Below the pieces are notes generated by a model. That model saw only the letters and a program-made list of their open reading frames with translations, had not been told where the DNA came from and did not search any database. Positions 8,567-58,810 of a DNA stretch of 64,000 bases are shown piece after piece. Both the position numbers and the translations under genes were made by a program. Source of the DNA: Acidobacteriota bacterium. GTDB taxonomy: Bacteria; Acidobacteriota; Thermoanaerobaculia; Gp7-AA8. Where the stretch lies: positions 340,967-404,966 of the forward strand of contig QHVT01000006.1 in the NCBI GenBank assembly GCA_003223645.1, written 5' to 3'. How positions within the stretch are numbered: position 1 is the first letter of the stretch; each line of letters opens with the position of its first letter.

Positions 8567-11500
8567 TCAATGCCGCGCGGAGCGGCGCTTCCCCGTGGGC
8601 GGCGGCGGCTGCCCCGCGTCGCCGGAGAGGATGATCGCCGGCGACTGCGTCCACGTCGTCCGATTGCCGGCGATGTCTTCGATCTCGATCCGCAAGTCGA
8701 CGGAATCCGCGCCCGCGCGGGTGACCGCTGCGAGATCGGTGCGATACATCTCGCCCGCGGGGAAGCGGCGTAACTGCGCGACGTCGCCGAGGTCGGAGCC
8801 TTGATGGACGGCGGTCAGCGGGGTCCAAGTGGCGGATCCGTGTGCGCGATAGAACACCTTGGTCGCCTCGCGTTTCAACTCGCGCGTCGAGCCGAGCTTG
8901 CTGCGCTGGTCGGCGGGCGGATAGAAGTAGTCGCCCGCGGCGAAGAAGAGTGACGCGTTGCTGTTCTTCTCCAGCTTCTCGGCGAGTCGCCCCTGCGCGT
9001 TCAACACGCGCAGCGCGGTGAGCGTGGGCGCGTCGAGGTCGTTCGGATCGCTGCCGAAGCGCACCTCCACCTCGCCGCGCGACGGCTGTCCGGCGATGTT
9101 CATGTCGTCGCGCGCGGCCACGTAGCGGCCGCCCGTCTGCGGCGCGGGACCGGGATCGCATGGACCTTCATCGCAGGTCGTGAGATTCGTGTATGTGCCG
9201 GCGGCGACTTGCGCGTTCGCGGCGTTGTAGCTGACCCACGGCGTGTCCTGCGTGACGTAGCGATACCACTCGCCGAGCGGCCCGACGAACCCCGGGACCA
9301 GTCCGATGTAGCGATTCGGCGCGGTGCCGAAGAACGAGAATGCGTAGAGCGGTGAGGTACCGAGCGTGAGCTCTTCGCCGTCCGAGATGCGATAGGCGGC
9401 GGGCGACGCATACACCCACGGCACGGAAACGATCGCGCCGTCGATGCCGCGCAGCTTTCCGATCGCCGTACTTCCCATGTCGAAGTCGATGCCCGACGTT
9501 CCGACGCCCGACTCCATCGTCGTGAAGTAATCGAGGATCATCTGCGGCCCGAGCTCGACCGGCGAACAATCGCTCAGGCTCTCCGTGACGATGGACGGCG
9601 TTCGCACCCCGGTCGTGAGGCATGCGAACACGGCGTTCGGTCCCTGCTTCGGTTGCGGGAAGCGAACGCGCACATGTTTGTACGTCGCCGGTCCCGCGCT
9701 CATCGTCGCCGACTGCGCGACGCCGGCGAGCGGCGGATACTGCACGTTGTACGCGCGGCCGTGCGTCACATCGAAGTACGCGTCGAACAAATGGAACGTA
9801 AACGTCGGCGAGACCGGAGAGAAAAACAGCTTCGGAACGGTGGCAGGAATTTGAAGCGTGACGGCGACCGCCGGCAGCTTCGCGTAGACGAAGCGAAGCG
9901 TGCGGATGTGATTGATCTGCGCCGGCAATTGATCGAATGCGGTGCCGAATTGGTCGCGCGCGTCGAGGACGACTTCCGCCGATGTGTCGGCGCGATGCAG
10001 CGCCACTTCGCTGTCGCCGGATGCGGTGCGATTTTCCGCGAATGCAATGCGCGCCGCGTACGGCACCGCGCTCGTGTCATACGCCAGCATCAGAAAATCC
10101 CACCGCGTGTCCGGCTGCGTGAAGAGCTCGGCCTTCCCCTCGTCGTAGAGGAACACGACCTTCGCCGTGCTCTCCGAAAGCGCGAGCGCGCTCACCGCGG
10201 GCTGATCGTAGGAGATCGTCACGCGCGCGGCGCGCGCGACGAACCACGGCAGCGCGAACGGCGCGGCGCCGCGAAACTCAATGTTTCCGTCGATGAAGGA
10301 CGCCGCCGGAAACGCAACGGTGCTGTTGTTGATGACGAGCCGCAAATCGACCGACTTCGACTCACCCGCCGCGAGCTGCAGCGTTGCCGGCGTGGCGGTG
10401 AACGTTGCTCCCGCCGGAACATTCGTCGCGACGACGTCGAACGTGCGCGCGTCCGCCGCGCGATTCGTGAGCGTGACGCTGCGCGTCGCCTCGAACGTGC
10501 CGCCCTTCCCGCTGGCGAGTCCGAAGCTGATGCCGGCGCCGTCGACGAACGTCGTCGCCGTGTCCGCGCGTGCGACATCGATGCGTCCCGCTGCGCGCGC
10601 AAGCGCCGCGTCGTCGACAGCCATCGCCGTCGTCACGAGCGCGCTCTTGATCTCCGCCGGCGTCCATGCCGGATGCAGTTTGCGCAGCAGCGCCGCCGCT
10701 CCGGTGACGTGCGGAGCTGCCATCGATGTTCCGTCCATCGCGACAATGAGACCGCTGAGGTAGGTCGATTGAATCGCGACGCCGGGCGCCATCACGTCCG
10801 GCTTGAATCCGAGGAGCGCGGGCGACGGACCGCGCGAGCTGAACGTCGCGACCGTTCCGAACGACGTCACCGCGCCGACGGTGATCGCGGTGCGCGCCGT
10901 GCCCGGGCTGCCGATCGAGTCCGGCCGGCCCGCGTTGCCCGCCGCCACCACGACGATCACGCCCGCGGCCGTTGCGTTGTCGACGGCATGCGACACGAGA
11001 TCGTCGGCGGTGCCGGGACCGCCGAGGCTGAGATTGATCACGTCGAGGTGATCGGAAGGATTGCCGTCCTGATTCGGATCGATGCTGCGCTCGATCGCCG
11101 CGATGACGTTCGACTGCAATCCGCTTCCCTGCGCGCTCAAGACTTTGTACGCGTACAGCGTTGCTCCCGGCGCGACGCCGGCGATCTCGGGCGAGTCGGC
11201 CGCGATGATGCCGGCGACGTGCGTGCCGTGACCGGCGTCGTCTTTCGGATCGCCGTCGTTATTCGCGAAGTCCCATCCGCCCGCGACCTTGTGTCCCGGG
11301 CCGAATGCGCCGCCGAGGGCGGGATGCGTGTAGTCGATGCCGGTGTCGATCACGCCGATGCGGATTCCGTCGCCGCGCGTCGCGAGCGAGCTCGCATTCA
11401 CGCGAGCGGCGGCGTCGATCGCCGCGGCCGTGGGTTTCGCATCGCCGGCCGCATACGCGGTGACCACGCGATCGGGAACCACCGCTTTCACGTACGGAAG

Positions 11501-11800
11501 GCGGCGAATCGCATCGAGCGACTCGCGCGGCACATCGATCGCCGCGCCGAAGATCGCCTGCACGTATTCGTAGCGGATCACCGGCGTCGCCGTTTGTTCG
11601 TGCGGATGCCGCTCGACCGTGCTCATCACGTCGCCGCGAAATCGCGCGAACGTCGCCGCGGCCGTCGTCCCGGGAATCCGCTGAAACTCCACGATGGCCG
11701 CGCCGCTCGGCAGCGGCTGCGCACGCAGCTCGATGTCATTCGATTGGGCGTGGAGTGTGGTCGCGGCAAGCAGAAGGGAGAGGACAAGGATCCGAGGCAT
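8567..11800 (-). CDS. S8 family serine peptidase (subtilisin-like) with long C-terminal extension, secreted
   Basis: Start at [18 protein letters not shown] signal peptide (ATG 11800); catalytic motifs [24 protein letters not shown]. Confidence 0.85.
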
Positions 11801-11996
11801 GCACCGTAGGGTACAGGGCAAATCGAAAGTGGAAGTGACGGAACGGTGGAGGCTTCCGCTCGCACTGTCATGTTCTTGCGTGAAAGCGGCGCGTGCACTC
11901 GATGAATAGGAATTCGCGCAAAAGTGGCCTGGCAGAAAGGTGGTACGACAAGAAGGGACCACGTCAGATCTGCCTCATGAGCCATAAAATAACGGC

Positions 11997-12677
11997 ATGT
12001 CAACGAACGATGCGGCAGATCACGAGACCGCGCAAAAGTGGCTGAAGACACTATCCGGGCAAGTGCTGCGACTGAGAATGGATTACCGCATCTGGGACGA
12101 GACCCAGGCGATCATTCGGGCTAATCCAAAATTACATCGCTCCAGTGAATTCTATCGCTGGATGAGAGAAATGTTTGTGTCCGGCGTCGCAATGTCGGTA
12201 CGCCGCTTAACCGACAGCGACACCCGCGCTATTTCGTTCTTCCGTTTCCTGAAGCTCGTGAAGGGCAATGCATCTCTCGTGTCGCGTCAGCGATACCGTA
12301 AGTTGTATAGAGACGACGACGTCTTTTCGCAGCAGCTTCGGGAATTGGGAATCATGACGGATCACGTGAAGGCGGAATACGAGATGCTGGTTGGACCCGG
12401 GAAGGAGCAGCCGAGTCCTGACGATATTCAGCGCGAACTTGACGCGATGCAGCAGTTAACTTCGAAGATCGTTGCGCTGGCAGACTCCTCGATCGCTCAT
12501 CACGAAGAAAAGAAGCCGGAGGATCTCCCAACCTTTGCCGACGTTGACAAGGCGATCAGCTTTTTCGAAGAGCTTCTAAAACGATATCGGTTGCTGTTCG
12601 ATGCCACGAGCATGTCTACGGATATTACGTTCCAGTACGATTGGAAAGCGATCTTCCGCGTGCCTTGGATTCCTTAG
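11997..12677 (+). CDS. Hypothetical alpha-helical protein (accessory, lower GC)
   Basis: 226 aa ORF with protein-like composition in a lower-GC patch; no family recognised by eye. Confidence 0.45.
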   Translation: MSTNDAADHETAQKWLKTLSGQVLRLRMDYRIWDETQAIIRANPKLHRSSEFYRWMREMFVSGVAMSVRRLTDSDTRAISFFRFLKLVKGNASLVSRQRYRKLYRDDDVFSQQLRELGIMTDHVKAEYEMLVGPGKEQPSPDDIQRELDAMQQLTSKIVALADSSIAHHEEKKPEDLPTFADVDKAISFFEELLKRYRLLFDATSMSTDITFQYDWKAIFRVPWIP

Positions 12678-12847: not shown

Positions 12848-13465
12848 TTAGCCGGCCGATCGTAAGACGCTTTCAATGTAACCTACCGCATCCTCAAAAT
12901 TGACAAGGACCTTGCACTGATAGTGAGCGAGTTCATCGTAGATTGCGGGATTGGCGAAACCCTTTCGATCTTGGCTTACAAAGCATTTCGGCCCGACTGG
13001 TGTTGACTTCGCGTGCGCTATCACACTTGCCAGCACAATGGAATCAGGCGGCGAAAGGGAACATCGACGCTCGAGTTCTACGGCAGCTATGAGAACTTCG
13101 GTAGATAGTGGCTCAATTGTGCCATGTTCTTCGATAACAGCAATTGCCTGCTCAAGGCGGCCGCGCGCTTCTTCGCCGCTTGCGACTATTGCGGCGAGGA
13201 GATCTTTCGACGTCTCAGGGAGTGCTTCGAACTGTTGTGAACGAGAGAGCTGCCGTATGAGCGGCTGAAGCTGATCTCGCAACAGAATATTTCTTTCCGA
13301 AAGGCGGATGTCCCAAGTGCTACGTGCTTCTGCGACGGAAAATGCCGGAATCACGAGAGCCACTGAACGGCGTCTTGCCAGCGCGAGGATCGTTTCACAA
13401 CTCTGGCGGCGCTCCTGAAGGTATGCCACCTCAAGGAGGAAGTTAGTTTCCGCGTAGACAATCAC
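12848..13465 (-). CDS. PIN-like domain protein (tentative)
   Basis: N-terminus MIVYAETNFLLE resembles PIN first strand (x-V-x-D/E-T-N-x-L); acidic residues downstream; 4-nt overlap with upstream ORF. Confidence 0.35.
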   Translation of the reverse strand: MIVYAETNFLLEVAYLQERRQSCETILALARRRSVALVIPAFSVAEARSTWDIRLSERNILLRDQLQPLIRQLSRSQQFEALPETSKDLLAAIVASGEEARGRLEQAIAVIEEHGTIEPLSTEVLIAAVELERRCSLSPPDSIVLASVIAHAKSTPVGPKCFVSQDRKGFANPAIYDELAHYQCKVLVNFEDAVGYIESVLRSAG

Positions 13466-13908
13466 GCAGCTTGGGACCTGATGACACCATCACGAATTGA
13501 TTCAATAAGCCCCGAGTCCCGAAGCCATGCAGGTTGTTCGGCTTCCGGCATTCCTGCAACGACGTCACTCAGCCAAGCGTAGATCAGCGCTTCGAAACTG
13601 CGCTCGCTGAGAGTGTCAAGAGAACCATGGAGACGGAGAAGATATGGCCGAAGAGCAACCGCAGTGTCTCCTTCAAACTCGGGCGGCCCAGCCTCACCGC
13701 TTGGATGACGCCACAGATATAGGTGATCCCGAAGGGCTAGCAGGAAGAATGGAGCAGGCGGTATCTGCGCATGCACGAGCAAGTTGCGCAAGAATCTTCC
13801 TGCCCATTCCGGCGATGGAGCAATGGTGTTGTTCGCCTCGACGACGAGCTGTATGGCTCCACCTGGTTTTTCAACCACGAAGTCGGCGGTCGGTCGTCTC
13901 TCTTCCAT
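13462..13908 (-). CDS. Hypothetical protein co-transcribed with PIN-like gene
   Basis: 148 aa ORF, stop overlaps start of 12848-13465 gene. Confidence 0.4.
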   Translation of the reverse strand: MEERRPTADFVVEKPGGAIQLVVEANNTIAPSPEWAGRFLRNLLVHAQIPPAPFFLLALRDHLYLWRHPSGEAGPPEFEGDTAVALRPYLLRLHGSLDTLSERSFEALIYAWLSDVVAGMPEAEQPAWLRDSGLIESIRDGVIRSQAA

Positions 13909-13957: not shown

Positions 13958-14482
13958 TTACCGTGTTGCAACCGCGCGCTCGAGTACTGCAAGACGCACA
14001 TCCCTCGGTCCCGCGATCTCGATGATCGCGCAACCGAGCTCGTACCCGCCGATGATCTCGAGCAGCTGGTCATTCATCGCTTCGCGCAGTGCCGGATCCT
14101 CGGACTCCGGTACATCGATGCGATCGGTGTCATTGAGAGGAAGGACGACGAGCAGGTCGACGTGGCGCATGCCGGTGGCGACGAGCTCCAACGCGGGCTC
14201 GATCAGGTCTCGAGCGTCGAGTGCGCGGAGGTACGCGAGAAAATCGACGGGACTGCGCTCCGCGATCACGCGCGCTCCGCGCTCGTGTGTACTGAGCCGC
14301 TCCACGCAAATCTCGAGTTGGCGATAGAAGTCGTCCGCTGCCGGCGGGTCGCTCATTTGATCGAGCCATTCGTACGGCTCGGGCTCGAACGCATAGTCCG
14401 CGTGAGCGGCGAGGAAGTCTTCGATCAGCGTGGTCTTCCCCGAGGCGTGCGTGCCGGAAACGGCGATTCTCACGCGGATCAC
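13958..14482 (-). CDS. Small P-loop NTPase (AAA_28-like ATPase/kinase fold)
   Basis: Walker A GTHASGKTT at residues 9-17; Walker B-like DLLVVLP; 174 aa. Confidence 0.6.
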   Translation of the reverse strand: MIRVRIAVSGTHASGKTTLIEDFLAAHADYAFEPEPYEWLDQMSDPPAADDFYRQLEICVERLSTHERGARVIAERSPVDFLAYLRALDARDLIEPALELVATGMRHVDLLVVLPLNDTDRIDVPESEDPALREAMNDQLLEIIGGYELGCAIIEIAGPRDVRLAVLERAVATR

Positions 14483-14502
14483 GGTATAACAGCGCGAAAT
14501 CG

Positions 14503-15333
14503 ATGAGCGGGCATGCGCGATTTCCGATTCGCGAGTGGCGCCGGGCGGTTGCCGCCGCGGCGCAACGCGTCGGCAGCGAGGCGATTGCGCCGTTCGGGTT
14601 CGAGCTGACCGGATCGGCGAAGTATCTCTCCTCCCACCTCCGATATCTTTTCATCTATCTCCTGCGCACGCCGTCGCCGTTGGGGAACGAGCCGCTGGTG
14701 CGCGAGATCTGTGATGCGCTCGATGGCGCGCTCGCCGACGTCGCGCGCACGATCGAGATCGTCGACTACGACCGCTTCACCGTGCCGACCGGTTTCGACG
14801 CATCGCGAACGCTGATCATTCGCTCGGTCGACGCGGAGCTGCCGCTGCTGCGGACGTGGGCGCGCTACATCGTCGCCGCGGCGCTCGCCGTCAACCGGCC
14901 GCGCATCACCGCCGTCACCGATTTCCATTCCGATCTGATGGCGCAGCGCTACTGCTGTCAGCTGGCGATCATGCACGACGCGCTGTTCGCTGCGCTGCCG
15001 AACATGCCCGCGCTTTCGCTGCGCGACGCGATCGGACGCCATCTCGGCGGGCTGCAGCGCGTCAGTCTCGCCGACCGCTTTCGCTTCGAGCTCGTGGATG
15101 CCGAAGTCGTGCGCGCGATCGGCATCGCCATCGATCGCTTTTACGCGGACGTGAACGTGAAGTGGAGCGACTCCGCGGCGAACATTCGCGTGCCCGACTT
15201 TCACGGCAAGGCGCTGCTCGATTATCCGCGGAGCGACGAGCTCGACCTGCTCGTGGCGATCGCCATCCAGCGATATGAGGAGTACGCGGACGACGCTACG
15301 CCGCGTGCAGCCAGCGCGCAAATGCTGCAATGA
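14503..15333 (+). CDS. Hypothetical protein
   Basis: 276 aa, strong GC3 bias; preferred over the Arg-rich antisense ORF 14479-15360. Confidence 0.45.
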   Translation: MSGHARFPIREWRRAVAAAAQRVGSEAIAPFGFELTGSAKYLSSHLRYLFIYLLRTPSPLGNEPLVREICDALDGALADVARTIEIVDYDRFTVPTGFDASRTLIIRSVDAELPLLRTWARYIVAAALAVNRPRITAVTDFHSDLMAQRYCCQLAIMHDALFAALPNMPALSLRDAIGRHLGGLQRVSLADRFRFELVDAEVVRAIGIAIDRFYADVNVKWSDSAANIRVPDFHGKALLDYPRSDELDLLVAIAIQRYEEYADDATPRAASAQMLQ

Positions 15334-17521
15334 GCGGGTGGACCGGCGCGGACGCGGCACGGCGATGCATCCACGCGTGCACCGTCTTCAGTTGCCGCGC
15401 GACGCGCAGACCGTTCTCTTCGACGGCGCGGCCGGTCTGATACGTGTCGATCGCGCAGTCGATCGCGCCGGTGCGCAGCCACGCTTCGACGCAGCCGGTG
15501 ACCGGCACCACATCGATTGCCGGATCCATCACGTCTCGCGCGACACTCGGCCACGCGGACGCACACGTGCTGCGTGATTCACCATCGCCGATTTCGACGA
15601 GGCGACAGGGATCGACGCCCAGCGGAAAGAGTGCTTCGATCTGGTCGCCGTCCTCGAGTCGCACGTCCTCGCCGAAGATCGCGTAGCCGGCCCATCCGCG
15701 CCGCAACATCGCCGGCAGATCGCGCGATCGCGCGAAGACGACTTGCAGCGCATGCGACGTGATGTTCCACGTCAGCTCGCCGGACTTGAACGGACCGGCG
15801 GCAATGCCGCCGTCATCGAAGAACGCGCGCAACAGCGAGCGCATCACCGCGCTGTTCGGCGCGGCGACGATCACCGGCGTTCGTTCCGCGGACGCAGCGA
15901 GATCCACAGCGTGCATCGCGCAATCGCGACGCGCGATCGCCGCGGCAGCCGCGAGCAACGCGCGCTGCAACATGACGCGCGCTTCGGCGAGCGCGGTGTC
16001 GCCAAGACGGGTCATGCGCGTGCCGGCGCAATTGAGAACGCGCACCGCGTGACGGTCGAGCCATTCGACGACGCGCGCGGCAACGTCGTCGGCAGGAACG
16101 CCGCGCAACTCGAGTACCGGCCGCCCCAGCCACCTCGCCGCTTTCCTCGTCTCCTCCGACCCCTCGGATTGCGCGTAGTCGAGCAGCAGCGTTCCGTCGC
16201 TCGCGAACACGTTCGCCCATGTGCAGAACCGGTAGCTCGGCGTCGCCAGCTCGAGAATCGTTGCGCCGTCGAGACGATCGGGTCCGCCTTCTCCGAGCTC
16301 GCTGCACTCGGTGCGCTTTCCCTCCGGCATGATTGCGAACGCCGTCACACCGAACGTGCGCGCGGTCTGCAGCGCGAGTTGATCGATTCCCGTTTGTCCG
16401 CAGCTCGTGATCACGAGCCCCGGACTGAGGTGCAATCGCGTCGCGAACGACGCCTCGGTCGTGCTGGAACTGCGCCGCTCGATGTGCGCGGGAAAAATCT
16501 CATTCAGGTCGTCGCTGCGCGGGACGTGCGACGACGGCGACTGCATCGCCGCGCGCGCCTGCGCCTGCGCCATGGCATGCGCATCGTCGACGCTCGCACC
16601 GTCGATGCGGCAGGCGAGAAACGCGCCGGCGTACGCGTCGCCGGCGCCGAGGACGTGCACTGCCGATGGAGCACTCTCGAGCGGCAAATGAATCGCGTCG
16701 CGTGCCCCGCGCTCTTTCCAGACCACGGGGCGCGAGCCGTCGGTGCCGATGCATTCGACGTTCGCGACGACGGATGCGAAGCGCAGCGAGCTCTCGTCCT
16801 GCAATGCCAGCTCCACGAAGTCACGCCGCTGACCGATCAGGAATCGCAGATTTGCAAACTGCTCGAGACGCGCGGGCGATCGCCAATCTGCAATCAACAG
16901 TGCCAGCTGATCGCAGCGATGAATGAAATCGAGCAGCGCATCGTCCGCGGCCAAGGCATCGCACAGCGTCATGACCAACAGATCGCACGGCTGCAAATCG
17001 CGATCGCCCTGCAGTTGCGCATTGTGTTCGTAGATCGCGATCTGCCGCACGTCGCCGGTCGTCTCTTCGATCAGGCAGTAGGCCTCGCGCGTGAATCCCT
17101 TTCGCCACACCGGCTCGAGGGCGACTCCCCACGCGCGCAGATGCGCGAGTCCGGCGTCGCTGAGAATCGCGTCGTCGAATTCGGCGTGGCCGTGCCAGCG
17201 GATCGGACCGGGACGCAGTGCGGCATTGTGGCGACCGCTGCCCTCGGCGGTCGCGGTGCCGCTGCGGGCAGCGGCACCCACAACGCGCGCCGATGCTGCC
17301 GCGCAGAGCGTGTTCGAAACCGTTCCTCCCGGCGTCCATCGCTGCTGCCCTCGCTCCGCCGCGAATCGCCGGTACGCCTCGCGTTCCTCGGAAGAGATCG
17401 CGAGCCGCACGTGGACGTCCGGCGCATGCGTTCGCAGAAACGCGTCGATCTCTCCGGAGGGAGCGATGATGATGTCATCGCGCGTGGCATGCCCGATCCC
17501 CAGTACAACGGCATCAGGCAT
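15296..17521 (-). CDS. Tri-domain fusion: PfkB-family sugar/nucleoside kinase + SLOG (putative molybdenum-carrier-like) domain + HisG-type ATP phosphoribosyltransferase
   Basis: PfkB motifs TPGGTVSNTLCAAASARV and GAGDAYAGAF; SLOG/MoCo-carrier motif ITSCGQTGIDQLALQTA ... SYRFCTWANVFASDGTLLL; HisG motifs DLPAMLRRGWAGYAIFGEDVRLE, LGVDPCRLVE, TGCVEAWLRTGAIDCAIDTYQTGRAVEENGL; ATG overlaps upstream gene stop by 8 nt (ATGCCTGA). Confidence 0.7.
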   Translation of the reverse strand: MPDAVVLGIGHATRDDIIIAPSGEIDAFLRTHAPDVHVRLAISSEEREAYRRFAAERGQQRWTPGGTVSNTLCAAASARVVGAAARSGTATAEGSGRHNAALRPGPIRWHGHAEFDDAILSDAGLAHLRAWGVALEPVWRKGFTREAYCLIEETTGDVRQIAIYEHNAQLQGDRDLQPCDLLVMTLCDALAADDALLDFIHRCDQLALLIADWRSPARLEQFANLRFLIGQRRDFVELALQDESSLRFASVVANVECIGTDGSRPVVWKERGARDAIHLPLESAPSAVHVLGAGDAYAGAFLACRIDGASVDDAHAMAQAQARAAMQSPSSHVPRSDDLNEIFPAHIERRSSSTTEASFATRLHLSPGLVITSCGQTGIDQLALQTARTFGVTAFAIMPEGKRTECSELGEGGPDRLDGATILELATPSYRFCTWANVFASDGTLLLDYAQSEGSEETRKAARWLGRPVLELRGVPADDVAARVVEWLDRHAVRVLNCAGTRMTRLGDTALAEARVMLQRALLAAAAAIARRDCAMHAVDLAASAERTPVIVAAPNSAVMRSLLRAFFDDGGIAAGPFKSGELTWNITSHALQVVFARSRDLPAMLRRGWAGYAIFGEDVRLEDGDQIEALFPLGVDPCRLVEIGDGESRSTCASAWPSVARDVMDPAIDVVPVTGCVEAWLRTGAIDCAIDTYQTGRAVEENGLRVARQLKTVHAWMHRRAASAPVHPLIAAFARWLHAA
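17228..17284. repeat. REP-like double-hairpin element, compact copy 3, inserted in-frame inside the PfkB domain coding region
   Basis: GTGGCGACCGCTGCCCTCGGCGGTCGCGGTGCCGCTGCGGGCAGCGGCACCCACAA; translated on minus strand as VVGAAARSGTATAEGSGRH directly after the PfkB GG..N..A...R motif. Confidence 0.75.
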
Positions 17522-18881
17522 ATTTCGTCACGGCGCCGCCGCAGTCGGTGATCATCTGACTCTCCAACTCTGCGATCTGCGGCGACCTGCGCGACGTCGA
17601 GAATTCGTCGCGCACCCAGGCCTCGAAGTCGGGATCCTGACGCGGCACCATGATGCCGTTCTTGAACTTCAATACGCTCTCTTTGAGCAGACGGATCTTC
17701 GCCTGCGGATGCATCCGGATGTAGCGGTAGGCAGTCACTCGATCGACGACCGCGACATCGCCGGCCGCCGCACTCACGATGCTGAGCGCAGTTCCGATGT
17801 CCGGATTCTGCACCACGATCGTATTGAACGACTCGATGCGGAGCTCGCGCACGGCGTACTCCCAACCGGCCTCCCCTTCCGCGACCGCCCAACGCAGTTG
17901 CATGCCGCGCAGATCGTCGAGCGTCTGGATCTTGCTGTCGTCCGCCACGACGGCGCAGAGGTCGATGCTGTGGAAGTTGCACGTGAAGTCCGCGTAGTCG
18001 CGGCGCTCGGAAGTCTCGAACACCGACAGCACGAGATCGATCGCGCGCGGATCCGCGACCGGCTTCGCGAAGATGTCGCTGGTGAACTCCTGCCATTGAA
18101 TCGGAACGAAGTCCACTTGCAGTCCGGTGCGCGCGGCGACGTCGCGCGCGAGATCGACGTAGTAGCCGCTGAACGTGACTTGCCGGTCATTCGTGAATTG
18201 GTAATCGGCGAGCGGCGGATGTTTCGTGACGCCGCAGCGCAGATGCCGTTTCGACATCACCAGCTCGCGGCGGCTCGGACGAAGGGACGTTGGTGAGAGT
18301 CTCGCGGTCGAGAGCTCCGGCCGCTGGAGCAATTGTCGTAAATGCTGCTCCACCCGTTCAAAGAATCCCTTCTCGCTGCCGCGGACTCCCGAATACGTTC
18401 CGATGATGCCGAGCTTCTCGACTTCCTCGCGAAACTTGAACACGCGCGTCAGCTCTTTCGAGGCCGCGACGGACTTCGGCTGCGGAGGATCATCGTTGAA
18501 ATAGAACAGCATCCACGCCTGCGTCTTCGCGTTCACGTTCTCGAGCGCGTTGCGGAACTCCTTCTCCGTACCCGACGCGCGCTTGCCGCCGCCGCCGAAG
18601 CGGGACGACATGATGCCGAGGTAGATGTCGCAGAGAGGCGTCTGGTCGTCGACGACGTCCTGCGGCGCGAGCCCGAGGCGCGGGATGACGTTGTCCTCCC
18701 ACTTGAACAGCTTGAGCTGACGCCCGGTCAGATTCCCCTCGGTTTCGTTGATGCGCGCGATCACTTCATCGAGGACGTTGCGCTCCGGCTCGCAGTCGCC
18801 GGGCGAAGAGACGAAGATTCGGATGAATGACAATGGAGGCTCCGGCTTTTTGGGATGTCGATGCTTCCCAAAATGATACAC
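17514..18881 (-). CDS. DUF4062-like N-terminal domain fused to cytoplasmic family-3 solute-binding (PBP type II) domain
   Basis: GTG start with GAGG 5 nt upstream; N-terminus FIRIFVSSPGDCEPERNVL matches DUF4062 signature; C-terminal 250 aa match SBP_bac_3 (GYYVDLARDVAARTGLQVDFVPIQWQEF ... LDDLRGMQL ... VDRVTAYRYI); no signal peptide. Confidence 0.65.
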   Translation of the reverse strand: MYHFGKHRHPKKPEPPLSFIRIFVSSPGDCEPERNVLDEVIARINETEGNLTGRQLKLFKWEDNVIPRLGLAPQDVVDDQTPLCDIYLGIMSSRFGGGGKRASGTEKEFRNALENVNAKTQAWMLFYFNDDPPQPKSVAASKELTRVFKFREEVEKLGIIGTYSGVRGSEKGFFERVEQHLRQLLQRPELSTARLSPTSLRPSRRELVMSKRHLRCGVTKHPPLADYQFTNDRQVTFSGYYVDLARDVAARTGLQVDFVPIQWQEFTSDIFAKPVADPRAIDLVLSVFETSERRDYADFTCNFHSIDLCAVVADDSKIQTLDDLRGMQLRWAVAEGEAGWEYAVRELRIESFNTIVVQNPDIGTALSIVSAAAGDVAVVDRVTAYRYIRMHPQAKIRLLKESVLKFKNGIMVPRQDPDFEAWVRDEFSTSRRSPQIAELESQMITDCGGAVTKYA

Positions 18882-19055
18882 GGAGCCTCACTTGCGCGCG
18901 CGGCTCAGCGCGACGCCGAGCGCGAGCATTCCACGGGATCATCCAGTGGTGATTCGTCGCTTCGCCGACTCGTACGCATAGTCGCAGCACTGCGCTGGAC
19001 GTCGTTCTTCTGATTCTTGAGTGATAAATCCCGGCGTGTCGGCGCCGGGGCAATT

Positions 19056-19235
19056 TCACGGAAGCGGTGGTCGCATCCCGTCATCGTCAGGTTGTAGCGT
19101 GAAAACGCTCCTGATAATCCGCGCAATGCGATCGAAGAAGCCGTCATGGCGGTCGCCCGGATCGTTTGAACGCGCGAGTGCGGGTGTGGAGCCAAGAGCA
19201 ATGAGCAGCAAGGCGCCGGAAAAGAGCCTTCGCAT
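19056..19235 (-). CDS. Small secreted peptide (59 aa, signal peptide + about 38 aa)
   Basis: MRRLFSGALLLIALGSTPALARS... ending GMRPPLP; below ORF-track size cutoff; sits between TPR-like genes and DUF4062 gene. Confidence 0.3.
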   Translation of the reverse strand: MRRLFSGALLLIALGSTPALARSNDPGDRHDGFFDRIARIIRSVFTLQPDDDGMRPPLP

Positions 19236-19277
19236 GTGAGACCCCCTTGAACAGGCGGTCCACTCTCGCGGGCGATG

Positions 19278-19931
19278 TTACACGGTCAGCGGTGAGATCG
19301 GCGCCCGGAAGGGGAACGGACGCTGATACGTGATCCGAAAGATGTATCGGCGAACGTCGAATACCACGTCCTCGGTCAGCGCATATTGCTGGGCGAGCTC
19401 GCGCAAGTACGTCATGACTTCAGCAGTGAGCCCGCGCCTGCGCGTCGGCTCATTCCGATCCAACCGGGTCGAGTATTCGGCTAGAGATCGACATATGGAG
19501 ATCGCGGCCTTGTATCGTTCGAGCGCGACCGTTGATGCCACCGCGTCGATTCCCACACGAACGAGCGCATCGTCGTTGTTTAAGAGCTGATACTTCGCCG
19601 TCGCGTCAGCGAACGCATCGAGTGCCGGATCATGTTCGGTCCTCAGCGCAAGGAGCTTTCCACGCAGCCAGTAATCACGCGCGAGGAGAGCGGTTGCGTT
19701 TCGACGCCGGTCATCCACTTCGAGAGCCGCCAGGCATTCATCGATATCGCTGGCGGCGTCTCCATTTTCGATGCGTGCCCACAACAAATTACTGAGCGCA
19801 TCGTGCCAGGCAGCGATGTCGCTCTCAGGAGTTCGAACGAATACCTCATGACAGACCTCAACGGAACGGGGATCGCCGCTCCGATAAAGTAGTAATCCAC
19901 GCGTACTCCGCGCGCGAAGCCATCCACTCAA
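19278..19931 (-). CDS. TPR-like helical repeat protein (possibly C-terminal part of a frameshifted gene)
   Basis: 217 aa, helical repeat character (DYWLRGKLLALRTEHDPALDAFADATAKYQLL); TTG start overlapping upstream ORF stop; lower GC. Confidence 0.45.
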   Translation of the reverse strand: MSGWLRARSTRGLLLYRSGDPRSVEVCHEVFVRTPESDIAAWHDALSNLLWARIENGDAASDIDECLAALEVDDRRRNATALLARDYWLRGKLLALRTEHDPALDAFADATAKYQLLNNDDALVRVGIDAVASTVALERYKAAISICRSLAEYSTRLDRNEPTRRRGLTAEVMTYLRELAQQYALTEDVVFDVRRYIFRITYQRPFPFRAPISPLTV

Positions 19932-20323
19932 TCGCGACGAACATAGATCGGCTCTACGACATCCAAGAGTGCTCTTGCGTCGTCAGGACACCAAATATCG
20001 CGCTCGATGGCCAGCAACGCCCGTGACAATAGAATCGACGCATCTGCCAACTCCACATCCCGAACGTGCATCGCCGCTTCCGTTGCTGCGGCAAGAGCGA
20101 TGCGGCACTCCTCATAGCGTCCCGACTCGCGTAGAAGCGCGGAATGAATCTTCCACGTCTCGAAACGATGAAGGAAGTCGAGCCGACCGCGGGCATGATC
20201 CGCGCCTACACCGCCGCGTGTATCGCAATTACCGATGACGAGACGATCTCGCCGCTCGATCTGTTCGAGCTGCAGCCGGACGCGGAGGAGATCGCGGCGG
20301 CGCGAAGGCGTTACGAGCAGCAT
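19928..20323 (-). CDS. Hypothetical helical protein (possible N-terminal part of the same TPR-like gene)
   Basis: 131 aa; stop overlaps start of 19278-19931 ORF. Confidence 0.4.
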   Translation of the reverse strand: MLLVTPSRRRDLLRVRLQLEQIERRDRLVIGNCDTRGGVGADHARGRLDFLHRFETWKIHSALLRESGRYEECRIALAAATEAAMHVRDVELADASILLSRALLAIERDIWCPDDARALLDVVEPIYVRRD

Positions 20324-24195: not shown

Positions 24196-24459
24196 GTGAT
24201 GTCACGTCGGAAGGAACGGAGCCCGGAAGGGCAGCGGTTCGGCGACACGTTGCGCCGACTTCGGAACGAGCGCGACCTGAGTCAGGAACGGCTCGCGGAA
24301 GCGGCGAATCTGACGGCGGATTACGTCGGCTTCGTCGAGCGCGGGGAGAACGTGCCGACGCTGACCGTTCTCCTCAAGCTGGCGAGGGCGCTCAGAGTCG
24401 ATGCGTCGGAGTTACTGAGCGAGTTCACGGTAGCGACGTTGAAGCGCATGAAGTTGTAG
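24196..24459 (+). CDS. XRE-family (Cro/C1-type) HTH transcriptional regulator
   Basis: LRRLRNERDLSQERLAEAANLTADYVGFVERGENVPTLTVLLKLARAL is a classic XRE HTH. Confidence 0.8.
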   Translation: MMSRRKERSPEGQRFGDTLRRLRNERDLSQERLAEAANLTADYVGFVERGENVPTLTVLLKLARALRVDASELLSEFTVATLKRMKL

Positions 24460-26997: not shown

Positions 26998-27609
26998 TCA
27001 GGAGGGCGATGGCGTAGCCACCGCCCTTCGGAATTTCCGCACGGCTTCGGTTTGGTCTTCGTAGTCGAGGAAGCCTTCGATGAAGGAAGGCGTGAGCCCG
27101 GGCATCACGACGCTCTTCGAGATTTCGACGTACGCATCACCGCGCAGCTCGTACGCCTTTAGCTTTTCCTTTTTCCAGATCCAAACCTCTCTCACTCCGA
27201 GACCGCGATAGACGTCGAGCTTATCGAGTCCTCCGCGTGTCCAAATCACTTCCACCGCGAGATCAGGATTTTCCTTCTCCGCTCCGACGACGTAACACTC
27301 GTCCGGCTCGATTCCCCGCAACTTGGGAGCGTTGCGCATGGTGAGGGAACCGTAACCATTGAAAAATATCCCGTTCTCCTCCGCATAGGTTTCGAGAAGG
27401 CGACCGATCAACGTCTTGTAAAACTCGTGGCTTCGCGATGGACTCATGATCTCGAGTTGTCCCTCCAGGTAGGTCACCCGTACTCCGGCACGATCGCCGC
27501 GGATTGCGAGGAAGGTTTCGAACTGCCACCAGTCGATGTCCTGCAGAATCACGCGCTGATCGGGGTCTAGCGACCTGTCCGGAGGCGCGAGAACGGGTGC
27601 GGTGGACAT
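26998..27609 (-). CDS. Uma2-family (DUF820) PD-(D/E)xK endonuclease
   Basis: 203 aa from MSTAPVLAP; motifs ILQDIDWWQFE, YLEGQLEIMSP, PDLAVEV typical of Uma2 family. Confidence 0.7.
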   Translation of the reverse strand: MSTAPVLAPPDRSLDPDQRVILQDIDWWQFETFLAIRGDRAGVRVTYLEGQLEIMSPSRSHEFYKTLIGRLLETYAEENGIFFNGYGSLTMRNAPKLRGIEPDECYVVGAEKENPDLAVEVIWTRGGLDKLDVYRGLGVREVWIWKKEKLKAYELRGDAYVEISKSVVMPGLTPSFIEGFLDYEDQTEAVRKFRRAVATPSPS

Positions 27610-27673
27610 GAATCGAATATAACACCATATTCCTGAAAATCTTGGCACGCCGCTCGCGATAGAAACCACCCAG

Positions 27674-28366
27674 ATGCGGCGCGTTTCCGTTAGGCCCGGA
27701 GCGCCGGAGAGGCGGTCGTTTCCTCGTCCCCCGCTCTGGCTGAACCTGCTCGTACTTCTCCTCGGCATTGCAGGATTTCTGTACGCGCGCTACGACCGCG
27801 AGCGCGTGTCGACGAAGTTCGCGGGAGTGCTCGCCGAGGAGGCGCGGACGCCGGCGGATACGGCGCGGATGAAAGACGAGCTCGCGAAGCTCGCTCTCAC
27901 GCGCAACGATCTGCAGCATGAGCTCGAAGGGCGGATGAAGTTCGTCGCGAGTCTGAAGTCGGAAGACTTTTACCTTTCGATCGACTCGCGTTCGCATCGC
28001 CTGCGCTTCTACTACGGCGGCACGATCCTGCGCGAAGACGACGTCGCGATCGGCGAGTCGAAGACGATCAACGCGAACGGACACACGTGGACGTTCATCC
28101 CGCTGAAAGGCGCGTTCCCCGTCGAAGCGAAGATCGTCGACTACGCGTGGCGCGTGCCGGAGTGGCTCGATCCCGCGCGTCCGACGATCGCGGACGGTCT
28201 CGGAAAGTACGTGCTGTTTTTACCGAACGGCTACGTGATTCACACGCCGCCGTCGCAAGCGAGTCCGCTGCACGGGCCGAAGCCGGGCTCGTACATGGTC
28301 TCGGAGGAAGCGCTCGCCGCGATCTGGGAGCGCATTCACAAAGGAACCCCGGTGTACATCTATTGA
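27674..28366 (+). CDS. L,D-transpeptidase (YkuD) domain paralog lacking the catalytic Cys motif
   Basis: N-terminal TM; YkuD-like region NGHTWTFIPLKG ... NGYVIHTPP ... GPKPGSYMV ... GTPVYIY but SHGC(V/I)R motif replaced by GSYMVS. Confidence 0.55.
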   Translation: MRRVSVRPGAPERRSFPRPPLWLNLLVLLLGIAGFLYARYDRERVSTKFAGVLAEEARTPADTARMKDELAKLALTRNDLQHELEGRMKFVASLKSEDFYLSIDSRSHRLRFYYGGTILREDDVAIGESKTINANGHTWTFIPLKGAFPVEAKIVDYAWRVPEWLDPARPTIADGLGKYVLFLPNGYVIHTPPSQASPLHGPKPGSYMVSEEALAAIWERIHKGTPVYIY

Positions 28367-58724: not shown

Positions 58725-58810
58725 TGGTGCCCGAGGCCGGACTCGAACCGGCACGGCCTTGCAACCGGAGGTTTTTGAGACCTCTGCGTCTACCATTCCG
58801 CCACTCGGGC
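58725..58810 (-). tRNA. tRNA-Leu (anticodon CAA), type II with long variable arm
   Basis: Reverse complement GCCCGAGTGGCGGAATGGTAGACGCAGAGGTCTCAAAAACCTCCGGTTGCAAGGCCGTGCCGGTTCGAGTCCGGCCTCGGGCACCA; anticodon stem GAGGT/ACCTC, loop CTCAAAA. Confidence 0.85.

Follow-up and report, generated by a model that had tools for sequence, protein, structure and literature searches.

We analysed a 64,000-nt stretch of DNA from an Acidobacteriota bacterium (hereafter the window; contig QHVT01000006.1, positions 340,967 to 404,966) and describe in it a rare three-gene cassette, which we predict most likely works as a small-molecule-triggered conflict system of the anti-phage type. Gene A joins an N-terminal NIR (DUF4062) domain to a solute-binding protein (SBP) domain, gene B fuses a PfkB kinase, a SLOG domain and a short-form HisG phosphoribosyltransferase, and gene C encodes an orphan protein that is linked to gene B as tightly as gene A is. 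The strongest single clue to function is that different outputs are exchanged on a constant cytoplasmic sensor among relatives of gene A, and this favours gene A as a ligand-gated effector. We propose tentatively, rating it as quite possible if short of probable, that gene B together with gene C makes or processes a ligand derived from an adenine nucleotide, and that the SBP domain reads this ligand and switches on NAD+ depletion.

Gene A and its relatives

Genes A and B are two overlapping minus-strand open reading frames (ORFs) in a part of the window where the GC content is about 62-67%. The longest ORF of gene A, 17514-18881 (-), encodes 455 aa from a GTG start at 18881, and this is how the earlier note described the gene. 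The ORF itself stands, but another start is likelier, because a GGAG sits 6 nt upstream of a TTG at 18833, gene callers return the 439-aa product of that TTG, and the N-termini of homologs (MSIVRIFVSS) also favour it over the GTG. Thus, gene A probably begins at the TTG and spans 17514..18833 (-).

The N-terminal domain of gene A (18327..18827 (-), residues 19-185 in the 455-aa numbering) was assigned from Pfam, PADLOC and its motifs. Pfam calls were judged against the curated cut-offs and NCBIfam equivalogs against their own, and five Pfam domains, two in gene A and three in gene B, score above the cut-off; these are the five (DUF4062, SBP_bac_3, PfkB, the cpYpsA type of SLOG, and HisG) that the earlier note had named. 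The DUF4062 match (PF13271) reaches 28.0 bits against a cut-off of 24.7 over residues 21-112. The N-terminal region of the PADLOC candidate PDC-S60 matches residues 19-185 with an E value of 2.6e-28, and the match is confined to positions 4-171 of this 906-position profile, which are the NIR domain, and so does not extend to full-length membership. The motifs RIFVSSPGDCEPER, SGTEKEF and QAW agree with the aromatic, S-x-T...Glu and Q/W motifs published for DUF4062, and RIFVSS, SGTE(K/I/V)EF and Q(A/P)W are kept in all four proteins that join NIR to SBP (gene A and three orthologs).

DUF4062 had been presented in the earlier note as an N-terminal domain of conflict proteins, which holds, but it can no longer be called uncharacterised. 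Three 2026 preprints describe it, under the name NIR, as a TIR-like NAD+ hydrolase. In Swarozyc, Evangelion, PsAvs2, Vulcan and Vesta, both NAD+ depletion and defence by abortive infection require its conserved Glu, and auxiliary C-terminal domains serve as sensors. The DUF4062 proteins characterised to date are NADases acting in immunity or vaults, the characterised NIR domains yield plain ADP-ribose (ADPR) and nicotinamide and no dedicated messenger, and DUF4062 is reported to be enriched beside known defence genes (20% vs 3.9%). We predict from the motifs that the N-terminus of gene A is a TIR-like NADase domain, with E106 or E108 (E90 or E92 in the 439-aa numbering) as its putative catalytic Glu; for a residue-level alignment to characterised DUF4062, the sequence search detected no solved relative.

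The rest of the protein, behind a linker, is an SBP_bac_3 domain of the type II periplasmic binding protein (PBP-II) fold (17517..18278 (-), residues ~202-455), as judged from Pfam, relatives in the PDB and an alignment of 12 loci. The Pfam match scores 45.6 bits against a cut-off of 26.4 over residues 224-442, and the closest solved relatives are the cyclohexadienyl dehydratase 5jos (E 1.6e-15) and amino-acid-binding proteins. This domain is the conserved core of the A family, with the signatures KHPPL, DLVLSVFET-x2-R, GEAGWE and KNxIMVP, and T290, R293 and D380 are invariant in the 12-locus alignment. The Arg of the TxxR motif (R293) and the Asp (D380) are also retained in alignments to the solved relatives, and the equivalent residues of GlnBP and HisJ presumably hold the carboxylate and ammonium groups of the ligand. 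No signal peptide or transmembrane (TM) segment was found in gene A, so the SBP domain is predicted to be cytoplasmic, as the earlier note had supposed. The fold is thus that of the binding proteins of ABC transporters, but gene A carries no export signal, we found no ABC permease or ATPase genes beside the loci that share the whole cassette (type-1 loci), and every NCBIfam equivalog for SBPs (amino-acid-binding proteins) scores far below its cut-off for gene A.

What varies among A-type proteins is the N-terminus, which is NIR, TIR_2 or a single TM helix on a constant SBP domain. The NIR form occurs in four loci of one Acidobacteriota/Thermoanaerobaculia clade (the window, L001, L003 and L023) and the TIR_2 form in L005. 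The commonest N-terminus consists of an acidic flank, one TM helix and a basic stretch, and the NADase domain is missing. Because the flank is acidic on the N-terminal side of the helix and basic on the C-terminal side, the positive-inside rule predicts that these TM-SBP relatives also carry their SBP domain in the cytoplasm.

Exchange of NADase and membrane outputs on one conserved sensor is the pattern of ligand-gated effectors. It resembles the CARF effectors Cam1 (TM-CARF) and Cat1 (TIR-CARF), in which one cytoplasmic sensor is likewise joined to exchangeable TM or TIR-type NADase outputs; unlike in those, the sensor here is PBP-II, Cas10 or another cyclic-oligoadenylate synthase is lacking, and the putative source of the ligand is the HisG/PfkB/SLOG enzyme. 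Since the SBP protein in most sister systems has a TM helix and no NADase, we argue that NIR is one of several exchangeable outputs and does not generate the signal. The NIR defence proteins (Swarozyc KpSwz, Evangelion Eva01, PsAvs2, Vulcan and Vesta) are like gene A in their N-terminal DUF4062 motifs and in an auxiliary C-terminal domain thought to control activation. They differ in that the auxiliary domain of gene A is PBP-II, which suggests a small-molecule trigger where theirs is a phage protein, and in that gene A is obligately linked to the PfkB-SLOG-HisG fusion and an orphan protein.

Gene B, gene C and the conserved trio

Gene B (15296..17521 (-), 741 aa) starts with an ATG that shares 8 nt with the stop of gene A (ATGCCTGA), and gene C (14503..15333 (+), 276 aa) converges on gene B, with 38 nt at the 3′ end of B common to both. 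The peptides quoted in the earlier note for the two minus-strand ORFs are all present in the translations and the 8-nt overlap is in the sequence as reported. That note had described a two-gene operon; the overlap of A and B bears this out, but the conserved gene C makes the unit one of three genes.

Hidden Markov model scans of all fetched loci found the trio of C, SBP protein and B in 12 distinct loci (the window, L001, L003, L023, L004, L005, L006, L007, L012, L013, L015 and L024), which span Acidobacteriota, Actinomycetota and other sources; one member is Candidatus Protofrankia, and others are Cellulomonas and further metagenome-assembled genomes (MAGs) of Actinomycetota. The co-conservation of A and B that the earlier note had expected is therefore seen, and gene C shares in it. 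The three genes usually run in one direction as a C-A-B operon, often with overlaps, and C is inverted only in the Acidobacteriota clade. Because the flanking genes differ at every locus, the trio is a self-contained unit. Genes A and B are real, with homologs on many unrelated contigs that share their architecture and synteny; this synteny, the Pfam scores and the confident models rule out chance ORFs in 65% GC sequence. Long antisense ORFs in the same place (e.g., 15743-17551 on the plus strand and 14479-15360 on the minus strand) are GC-driven shadows that recur between loci only through their overlap with the real genes.

The three domains of gene B were delimited from Pfam, homologs, an AlphaFold2 model and Foldseek. 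The PfkB domain (16487..17521 (-), residues ~1-345) scores 47.4 bits against a cut-off of 25.8, and the N-terminal ~360 residues match the adenosine kinases 3ubo, 4e3a and 1lii with a TM-score of 0.75. D15, G65-G66, N70 and the LGAGD295 motif (G292-A-G-D295) are invariant in an alignment of 15 sequences, so that the profile, the GG and N motifs, GAGD and a complete fold all agree with an adenosine-kinase-like domain. In the same alignment the NxxE motif is replaced by G-x3-[DE], because of which kinase activity is only putative. Residues 89-121 form an insert of low confidence by the predicted local distance difference test (pLDDT) of the model.

The SLOG domain (16007..16411 (-), residues 371-505) matches cpYpsA (PF12694, formerly MoCo_carrier) with 70.2 bits against 26.2 and shows the motifs GQTGIDQ, SYRxxTW, SDGT, EGSxETR and AGxR, with the Gly-rich nucleotide loops expected of the family. 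About 20 polar residues are invariant across the 15 sequences, as are GQTGIDQ, SDGT and AGxR. It is the most conserved part of gene B (38-75% identity between loci vs 22-66% for the flanking domains), and in distant members it is about twice as conserved as its neighbours (38-55% vs 22-31%).

The HisG domain (15296..15880 (-), residues ~548-741), placed with the help of alignments to PDB entries, scores 48.3 bits against a cut-off of 25.5. The C-terminal ~205 residues match the short-form HisG (HisG_S) of P. arcticus with a TM-score of 0.80, and the phosphoribosyl pyrophosphate (PRPP) loop, aligned to the DVVDTGNTL loop of HisG structures, has D692, T693 and G697 invariant and T696 nearly so. 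The hisG equivalog TIGR00070 gives 52.8 bits against a cut-off of 75.75, below equivalog level. Because all NCBIfam equivalog matches are sub-threshold, the domains of genes A and B are diverged family members and not housekeeping enzymes.

The AlphaFold2 model of gene B has a pLDDT of 87.8 and a predicted template modelling score (pTM) of 0.89, and on that ground the three domains are predicted to pack in a defined way. PfkB, SLOG and HisG families all typically act on adenine nucleosides or nucleotides, and there is published precedent for this in the SLOG/LOG family. Like HisG_S, the HisG domain of gene B has the complete fold, keeps the PRPP loop and lacks a C-terminal regulatory domain. 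It differs from the HisG_S-HisZ pair in its place within a fusion, after a kinase and a SLOG domain, in the lack of HisZ or a his operon, in its sub-equivalog score, and apparently in a Gly for Arg56 in this clade. In HisG_S, HisZ is needed for activation, and Arg56 and Arg32 stabilise the departing pyrophosphate. The gene B domain may likewise need a partner protein for activation and, as the C-terminal regulatory domain is lacking, by analogy probably does. G581 of gene B aligns to Arg56, in a loop where the alignment is uncertain, and the equivalent residue is R or K in the distant members P0006, P0011, P0013 and P0014.

Homologs of gene B are very rare. Among 5.8 billion proteins there are 15 full-length clusters, all with three domains, and the family as a whole comes to about 15-25 clusters. 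The identical protein is on record as a hypothetical protein of an Acidobacteria MAG.

Gene C, an obligate companion of A and B, shares 64% down to 21% identity with its counterparts in the other loci, which are 268-296 aa long and have no Pfam match. The PFGFE and DFHG motifs are invariant, as are residues F31, G32, E34 and Q153. The predicted structure (pLDDT 89.5, pTM 0.87) has an alpha/beta N-terminal part, a helical bundle and a beta-hairpin. A structure search in BFVD gave no convincing relative, and neither comparison with PDB sequences nor a Pfam scan of 39 diverse members returned a match. An exhaustive profile search of 1.84 billion proteins gave 74 clusters at 50% identity, nearly all of ~280 aa.

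Remote members of the C family occur in other settings. In L026 (505-7404) a remote homolog, P0070, begins one base past the stop of an 1831-aa protein, in whose sequence caspase-like HG...DTC motifs can be read and which has a weak match to STAND NTPases and WD40 repeats; P0070 is followed by a convergent MafB19-like deaminase, with no B or SBP gene within 6 kb. The 1831-aa protein, as read from these features, would have an NLR-like architecture typical of conflict systems. In L028 and L029, which hold remote C members, the order is B, an S-adenosylmethionine (SAM)-dependent methyltransferase, and C, and in P0046 (585 aa) of L025 a methyltransferase is fused to the N-terminus of C and placed after B. 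SAM-dependent methyltransferases recur near the system (L025 2177-3934, L028 2342-4073, L024 4587-5315 and L027 567-1373); they are encoded between B and C as genes of their own, after B, or as part of C itself. In L004 (10506-11165) B is directly followed by a MOSC-domain gene, and in L030 (7393-7818) such a gene is found downstream of a remote homolog of gene C; its link to the former "molybdenum cofactor carrier" name of cpYpsA may be a coincidence.

Competing readings of the cassette

On the reading we prefer, gene A would be a ligand-gated effector in which the SBP domain gates the NIR NADase, and in sister systems the same SBP sensor would drive a TIR_2 NADase or a single membrane helix. 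Gene B would be a rigid tri-enzyme that uses ATP, PRPP or nucleosides to make or process a ligand derived from adenine nucleotides, and gene C would most likely be the sensor of the trigger, or a regulator or activator of B, possibly HisZ-like for the short-form HisG. We favour this because the NIR domain matches the candidate defence protein PDC-S60 and retains the motifs with the Glu that NADase activity and defence require in its characterised relatives, because the trio recurs in 12 loci of different phyla with unrelated flanks, and because N-terminal outputs swap on a constant SBP domain as in Cam1 and Cat1. The reading draws further on gene B, whose signatures are invariant, whose model is confident and whose folds are those of adenine-nucleotide enzymes, on the remote C homolog translationally coupled to the caspase-STAND-WD40 protein, and on the surroundings of the cassette in the window, where HEPN_AbiU2, a PIN-like ORF, Uma2, IS1 and patches of low GC occur.

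In its logic the locus would work like the signal-plus-effector conflict systems CBASS, Pycsar, type III CRISPR and Thoeris; like their effectors, gene A and its relatives join one conserved sensor to interchangeable outputs. It is a member of none of them, and none of the known classes of signal synthase (CD-NTase, cyclase, TIR or Cas10) is represented in it. A full-text literature search found no system with this domain combination, and the earlier note had likewise named none; Burroughs et al. 2015, which defined cpYpsA, lay outside that search. The literature likewise held nothing linking HisG with SLOG, ATP phosphoribosyltransferase with anti-phage function and TIR, or SBP_bac_3 with TIR defence, and nothing naming PDC-S60, and the three 2026 NIR preprints make no mention of SBP, SLOG, PfkB or HisG partners. 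That the module makes or senses a phosphoribosylated nucleotide signal, as the earlier note suggested, is pure conjecture. An elaborated form of it, in which HisG, an adenosine-kinase-like domain and SLOG in a single polypeptide make an N-phosphoribosylated or ribosyl-modified adenine-nucleotide messenger, a cytoplasmic PBP-fold receptor gates interchangeable NADase or membrane outputs and C, an orphan fold that NLR-like STAND systems would use as well, senses infection, would be a new kind of immune signalling, and we regard it as unlikely.

Several observations weigh against a ligand-driven conflict system. To our knowledge, neither a PBP-fold receptor for an immune messenger nor a HisG-type signal synthase has a precedent. 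HisG-domain catalysis is plausible but only putative, given the Gly that aligns to Arg56. The gene B fusion is absent from the plasmid collection, where only single-domain hisG or "molybdenum carrier" matches occur, and from the phage collection, and genes B and C have no PADLOC or PHROG match. The earlier note had proposed a survey for enrichment of the homologs near known defence genes, and no enrichment was seen outside the window: 42 neighbour ORFs of four loci gave 0 PADLOC matches, and the Pfam contexts of ten loci outside the window are housekeeping, with no defence genes. With about 11 loci, this enrichment test has little power either way. A divergent clade of B occurs without A and C (L008/L016, L009, L010 and L019), in operons with thymidylate-synthase-like, dCMP-deaminase-like, methyltransferase-containing and ABC-ATPase genes, and SAM-methyltransferases (including the methyltransferase-C fusion) and HAD hydrolases (three loci) recur. 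Together, these methyltransferases and hydrolases and the thymidylate and deaminase neighbours of B resemble small-molecule metabolism. The divergent clade, which is also adjoined by a family of 185-257-aa proteins of unknown kind, looks like a second, nucleotide-modifying type of system (type 2).

These contexts speak for a rival reading, a specialised nucleotide or nucleoside metabolism, in which B would be a trifunctional enzyme (nucleoside 5′-kinase, SLOG N-glycosidase and phosphoribosyltransferase) that interconverts or builds a modified purine base, riboside or nucleotide or else a natural product of nucleoside type, A a membrane- or NADase-linked binding or catalytic subunit, and C an unknown enzyme of the pathway. 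A kinase, a LOG protein and a phosphoribosyltransferase are the three activities of adenine/cytokinin interconversion, the closest solved relative of the gene A SBP domain is an enzyme, and type-2 loci join B to the genes just named. Methyltransferases adjoin or fuse to C, the flanks are housekeeping with no PADLOC matches, and in L005 (4424-7899) nucleoside-salvage genes lie directly upstream of B: a cytidine deaminase (cdd), a PNP_UDP_1 phosphorylase, a PYNP_C fragment and a phosphopentomutase-like gene. (The L005 locus is also bordered by transposase genes.) A precedent exists in PenA, a HisG homolog that works in pentostatin biosynthesis in nucleoside antibiotic clusters of Actinomycetota and that is, as the domain of gene B would be, a HisG-type enzyme put to use beyond histidine biosynthesis to give a product derived from an adenine nucleotide. 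The present loci differ from it in their fusion architecture, in their NADase/TIR/TM-SBP partner, and in the lack of PenB (a short-chain dehydrogenase/reductase) and PenC (SAICAR-synthetase-like), an absence that rules out a pentostatin-type cluster. More generally, a swap of NIR, TIR_2 and TM helix on one SBP domain points to effectors, for which it is typical, and away from pathway enzymes, the characterised DUF4062 proteins are all NADases of immunity or vaults, and one C homolog is coupled to a caspase-STAND-WD40 protein. In addition, the 12 type-1 loci share no conserved neighbours of a metabolic kind, and their distribution is patchy in the extreme. On balance we consider a metabolic role rather unlikely, while taking it seriously.

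The direction of signalling could also be reversed, as in Thoeris, with A sensing a cue by its SBP domain, the NIR or TIR domain making an ADPR-type signal, and the SLOG domain of B sensing that signal while the kinase and HisG drain ATP and PRPP. The cassette and Thoeris (ThsB TIR plus ThsA SLOG/Macro) do have in common a TIR-superfamily NAD-cleaving domain with a SLOG domain on the partner and an NAD/ADPR logic of conflict. SLOG domains of the YpsA-like clade sense ligands of the cyclic-ADPR type, no other part of B comes near SLOG in conservation, the products that NIR and TIR enzymes release are of the ADPR type, and HisG and PfkB both consume ATP. We nevertheless disfavour this direction, because most of the sister systems are TM-SBP proteins with no NADase domain and hence no source of signal, and the characterised NIR gives plain ADPR and nicotinamide. 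The cassette also differs from Thoeris in that the TIR-like domain is dispensable across the family and in the extra orphan gene C. The parallel with ThsA drawn in the earlier note is a loose one: the SLOG domain of gene B is cpYpsA and not ThsA-type, it is fused to a kinase and a phosphoribosyltransferase and not to SIR2 or TM, and PADLOC gives no Thoeris, ThsA or ThsB profile match for the module. Neither a ThsA-type SLOG/Macro effector with SIR2 or TM nor the obligatory ThsB-type TIR signal producer is thus present, and we think this direction decidedly improbable.

Ordinary histidine or purine biosynthesis, with B a fused metabolic HisG and A the binding protein of a transporter, could appeal to the Pfam matches to HisG and SBP_bac_3 and to the kept PRPP loop, but is effectively ruled out by gene context and scores: no his or pur gene, HisZ or HisRS-like gene lies near the trio loci examined and no ABC permease or ATPase beside any type-1 locus, TIGR00070 reaches 52.8 of the 75.75 bits required and the SBP equivalogs are far below their cut-offs, gene A lacks a signal peptide and carries a fused NADase domain, and the family has only about 15-25 clusters in 5.8 billion proteins. 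The absence of neighbouring his genes noted earlier thus extends to every locus, and purine operons are absent as well. None of the outcomes that the earlier note had named as telling against it (failed profiles, a histidine or purine operon context, or a gene pair that is not co-conserved) was found.

If the ligand-gated effector reading is true, an intracellular PBP-fold receptor for a trigger molecule would be new to NAD-depleting conflict systems, as would a HisG-type phosphoribosyltransferase-kinase-SLOG fusion acting as ligand factory and an orphan-fold partner shared with NLR-like systems. It would also be the first small-molecule-gated setting for NIR/DUF4062, because the NIR systems described so far detect phage proteins directly. 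If the metabolic reading is true instead, B would be an unprecedented trifunctional purine-nucleotide enzyme and a second case of HisG taking up a role beyond histidine biosynthesis. In either case two unannotated families would gain a first function, that of gene C (about 74 clusters) and the cytoplasmic SBP clade; the great rarity of the family limits the general impact.

Surroundings of the cassette in the window

The window does look island-like, with HEPN_AbiU2, a PIN_12-like ORF, Uma2, IS1, an XRE-type control protein and patches of 55% GC. An ORF at 11997-12677 (+), about 1.8 kb beyond gene C in a low-GC patch, encodes a 226-aa protein that matches the abortive-infection family HEPN_AbiU2 (33.9 bits against a cut-off of 26.8). 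The PIN_12-like ORF at 12848-13465 (-) scores 29.9 bits, just under the cut-off of 32, and shares 4 nt with an upstream 148-aa ORF (13462-13908 (-)) that matches no family; the two, which lie in a patch of 55% GC, may form a toxin-antitoxin pair. Public gene calls omit both ORFs. A P-loop protein of family AAA_28 is encoded at 13958-14482 (-); its start codon and that of the divergent gene C are 20 bp apart, and it has weak similarity to deoxynucleoside kinases and to phage thymidylate kinase (PHROG E 1.5e-8); among the trio loci it occurs only here. The earlier note had listed PIN-like, P-loop ATPase and TPR-like genes around the cassette; the P-loop assignment holds, the PIN-like one falls just short of its cut-off, and the TPR-like one is not confirmed, with no Pfam match for 19278-19931 or 19928-20323.

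The gap upstream of gene A (18834-19278, ~445 nt) is unusually long and is not conserved in orthologous loci, measuring 45 nt in L001. An Rfam search of it gave nothing at E<=1, and promoter or terminator consensus was not found in it; a riboswitch or regulatory RNA there is rejected on these grounds. Beyond the gap, a Pfam scan of the ORFs 19278-19931 and 19928-20323 gave no family match, and public gene calls prefer small opposite-strand genes there. Farther out, the window encodes an 1131-aa S8 subtilase at 8567-11962 (-) (PADLOC "subtilase", E 1.4e-39), an XRE-type "control protein" with a helix-turn-helix at 24199-24459 (+), and a Uma2 putative endonuclease at 26998-27768 (-) beside an IS1-like transposase. 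Genes for tRNA-Arg(CCT) and tRNA-Leu(CAA) lie at 1179-1256 and 58725-58810, respectively.

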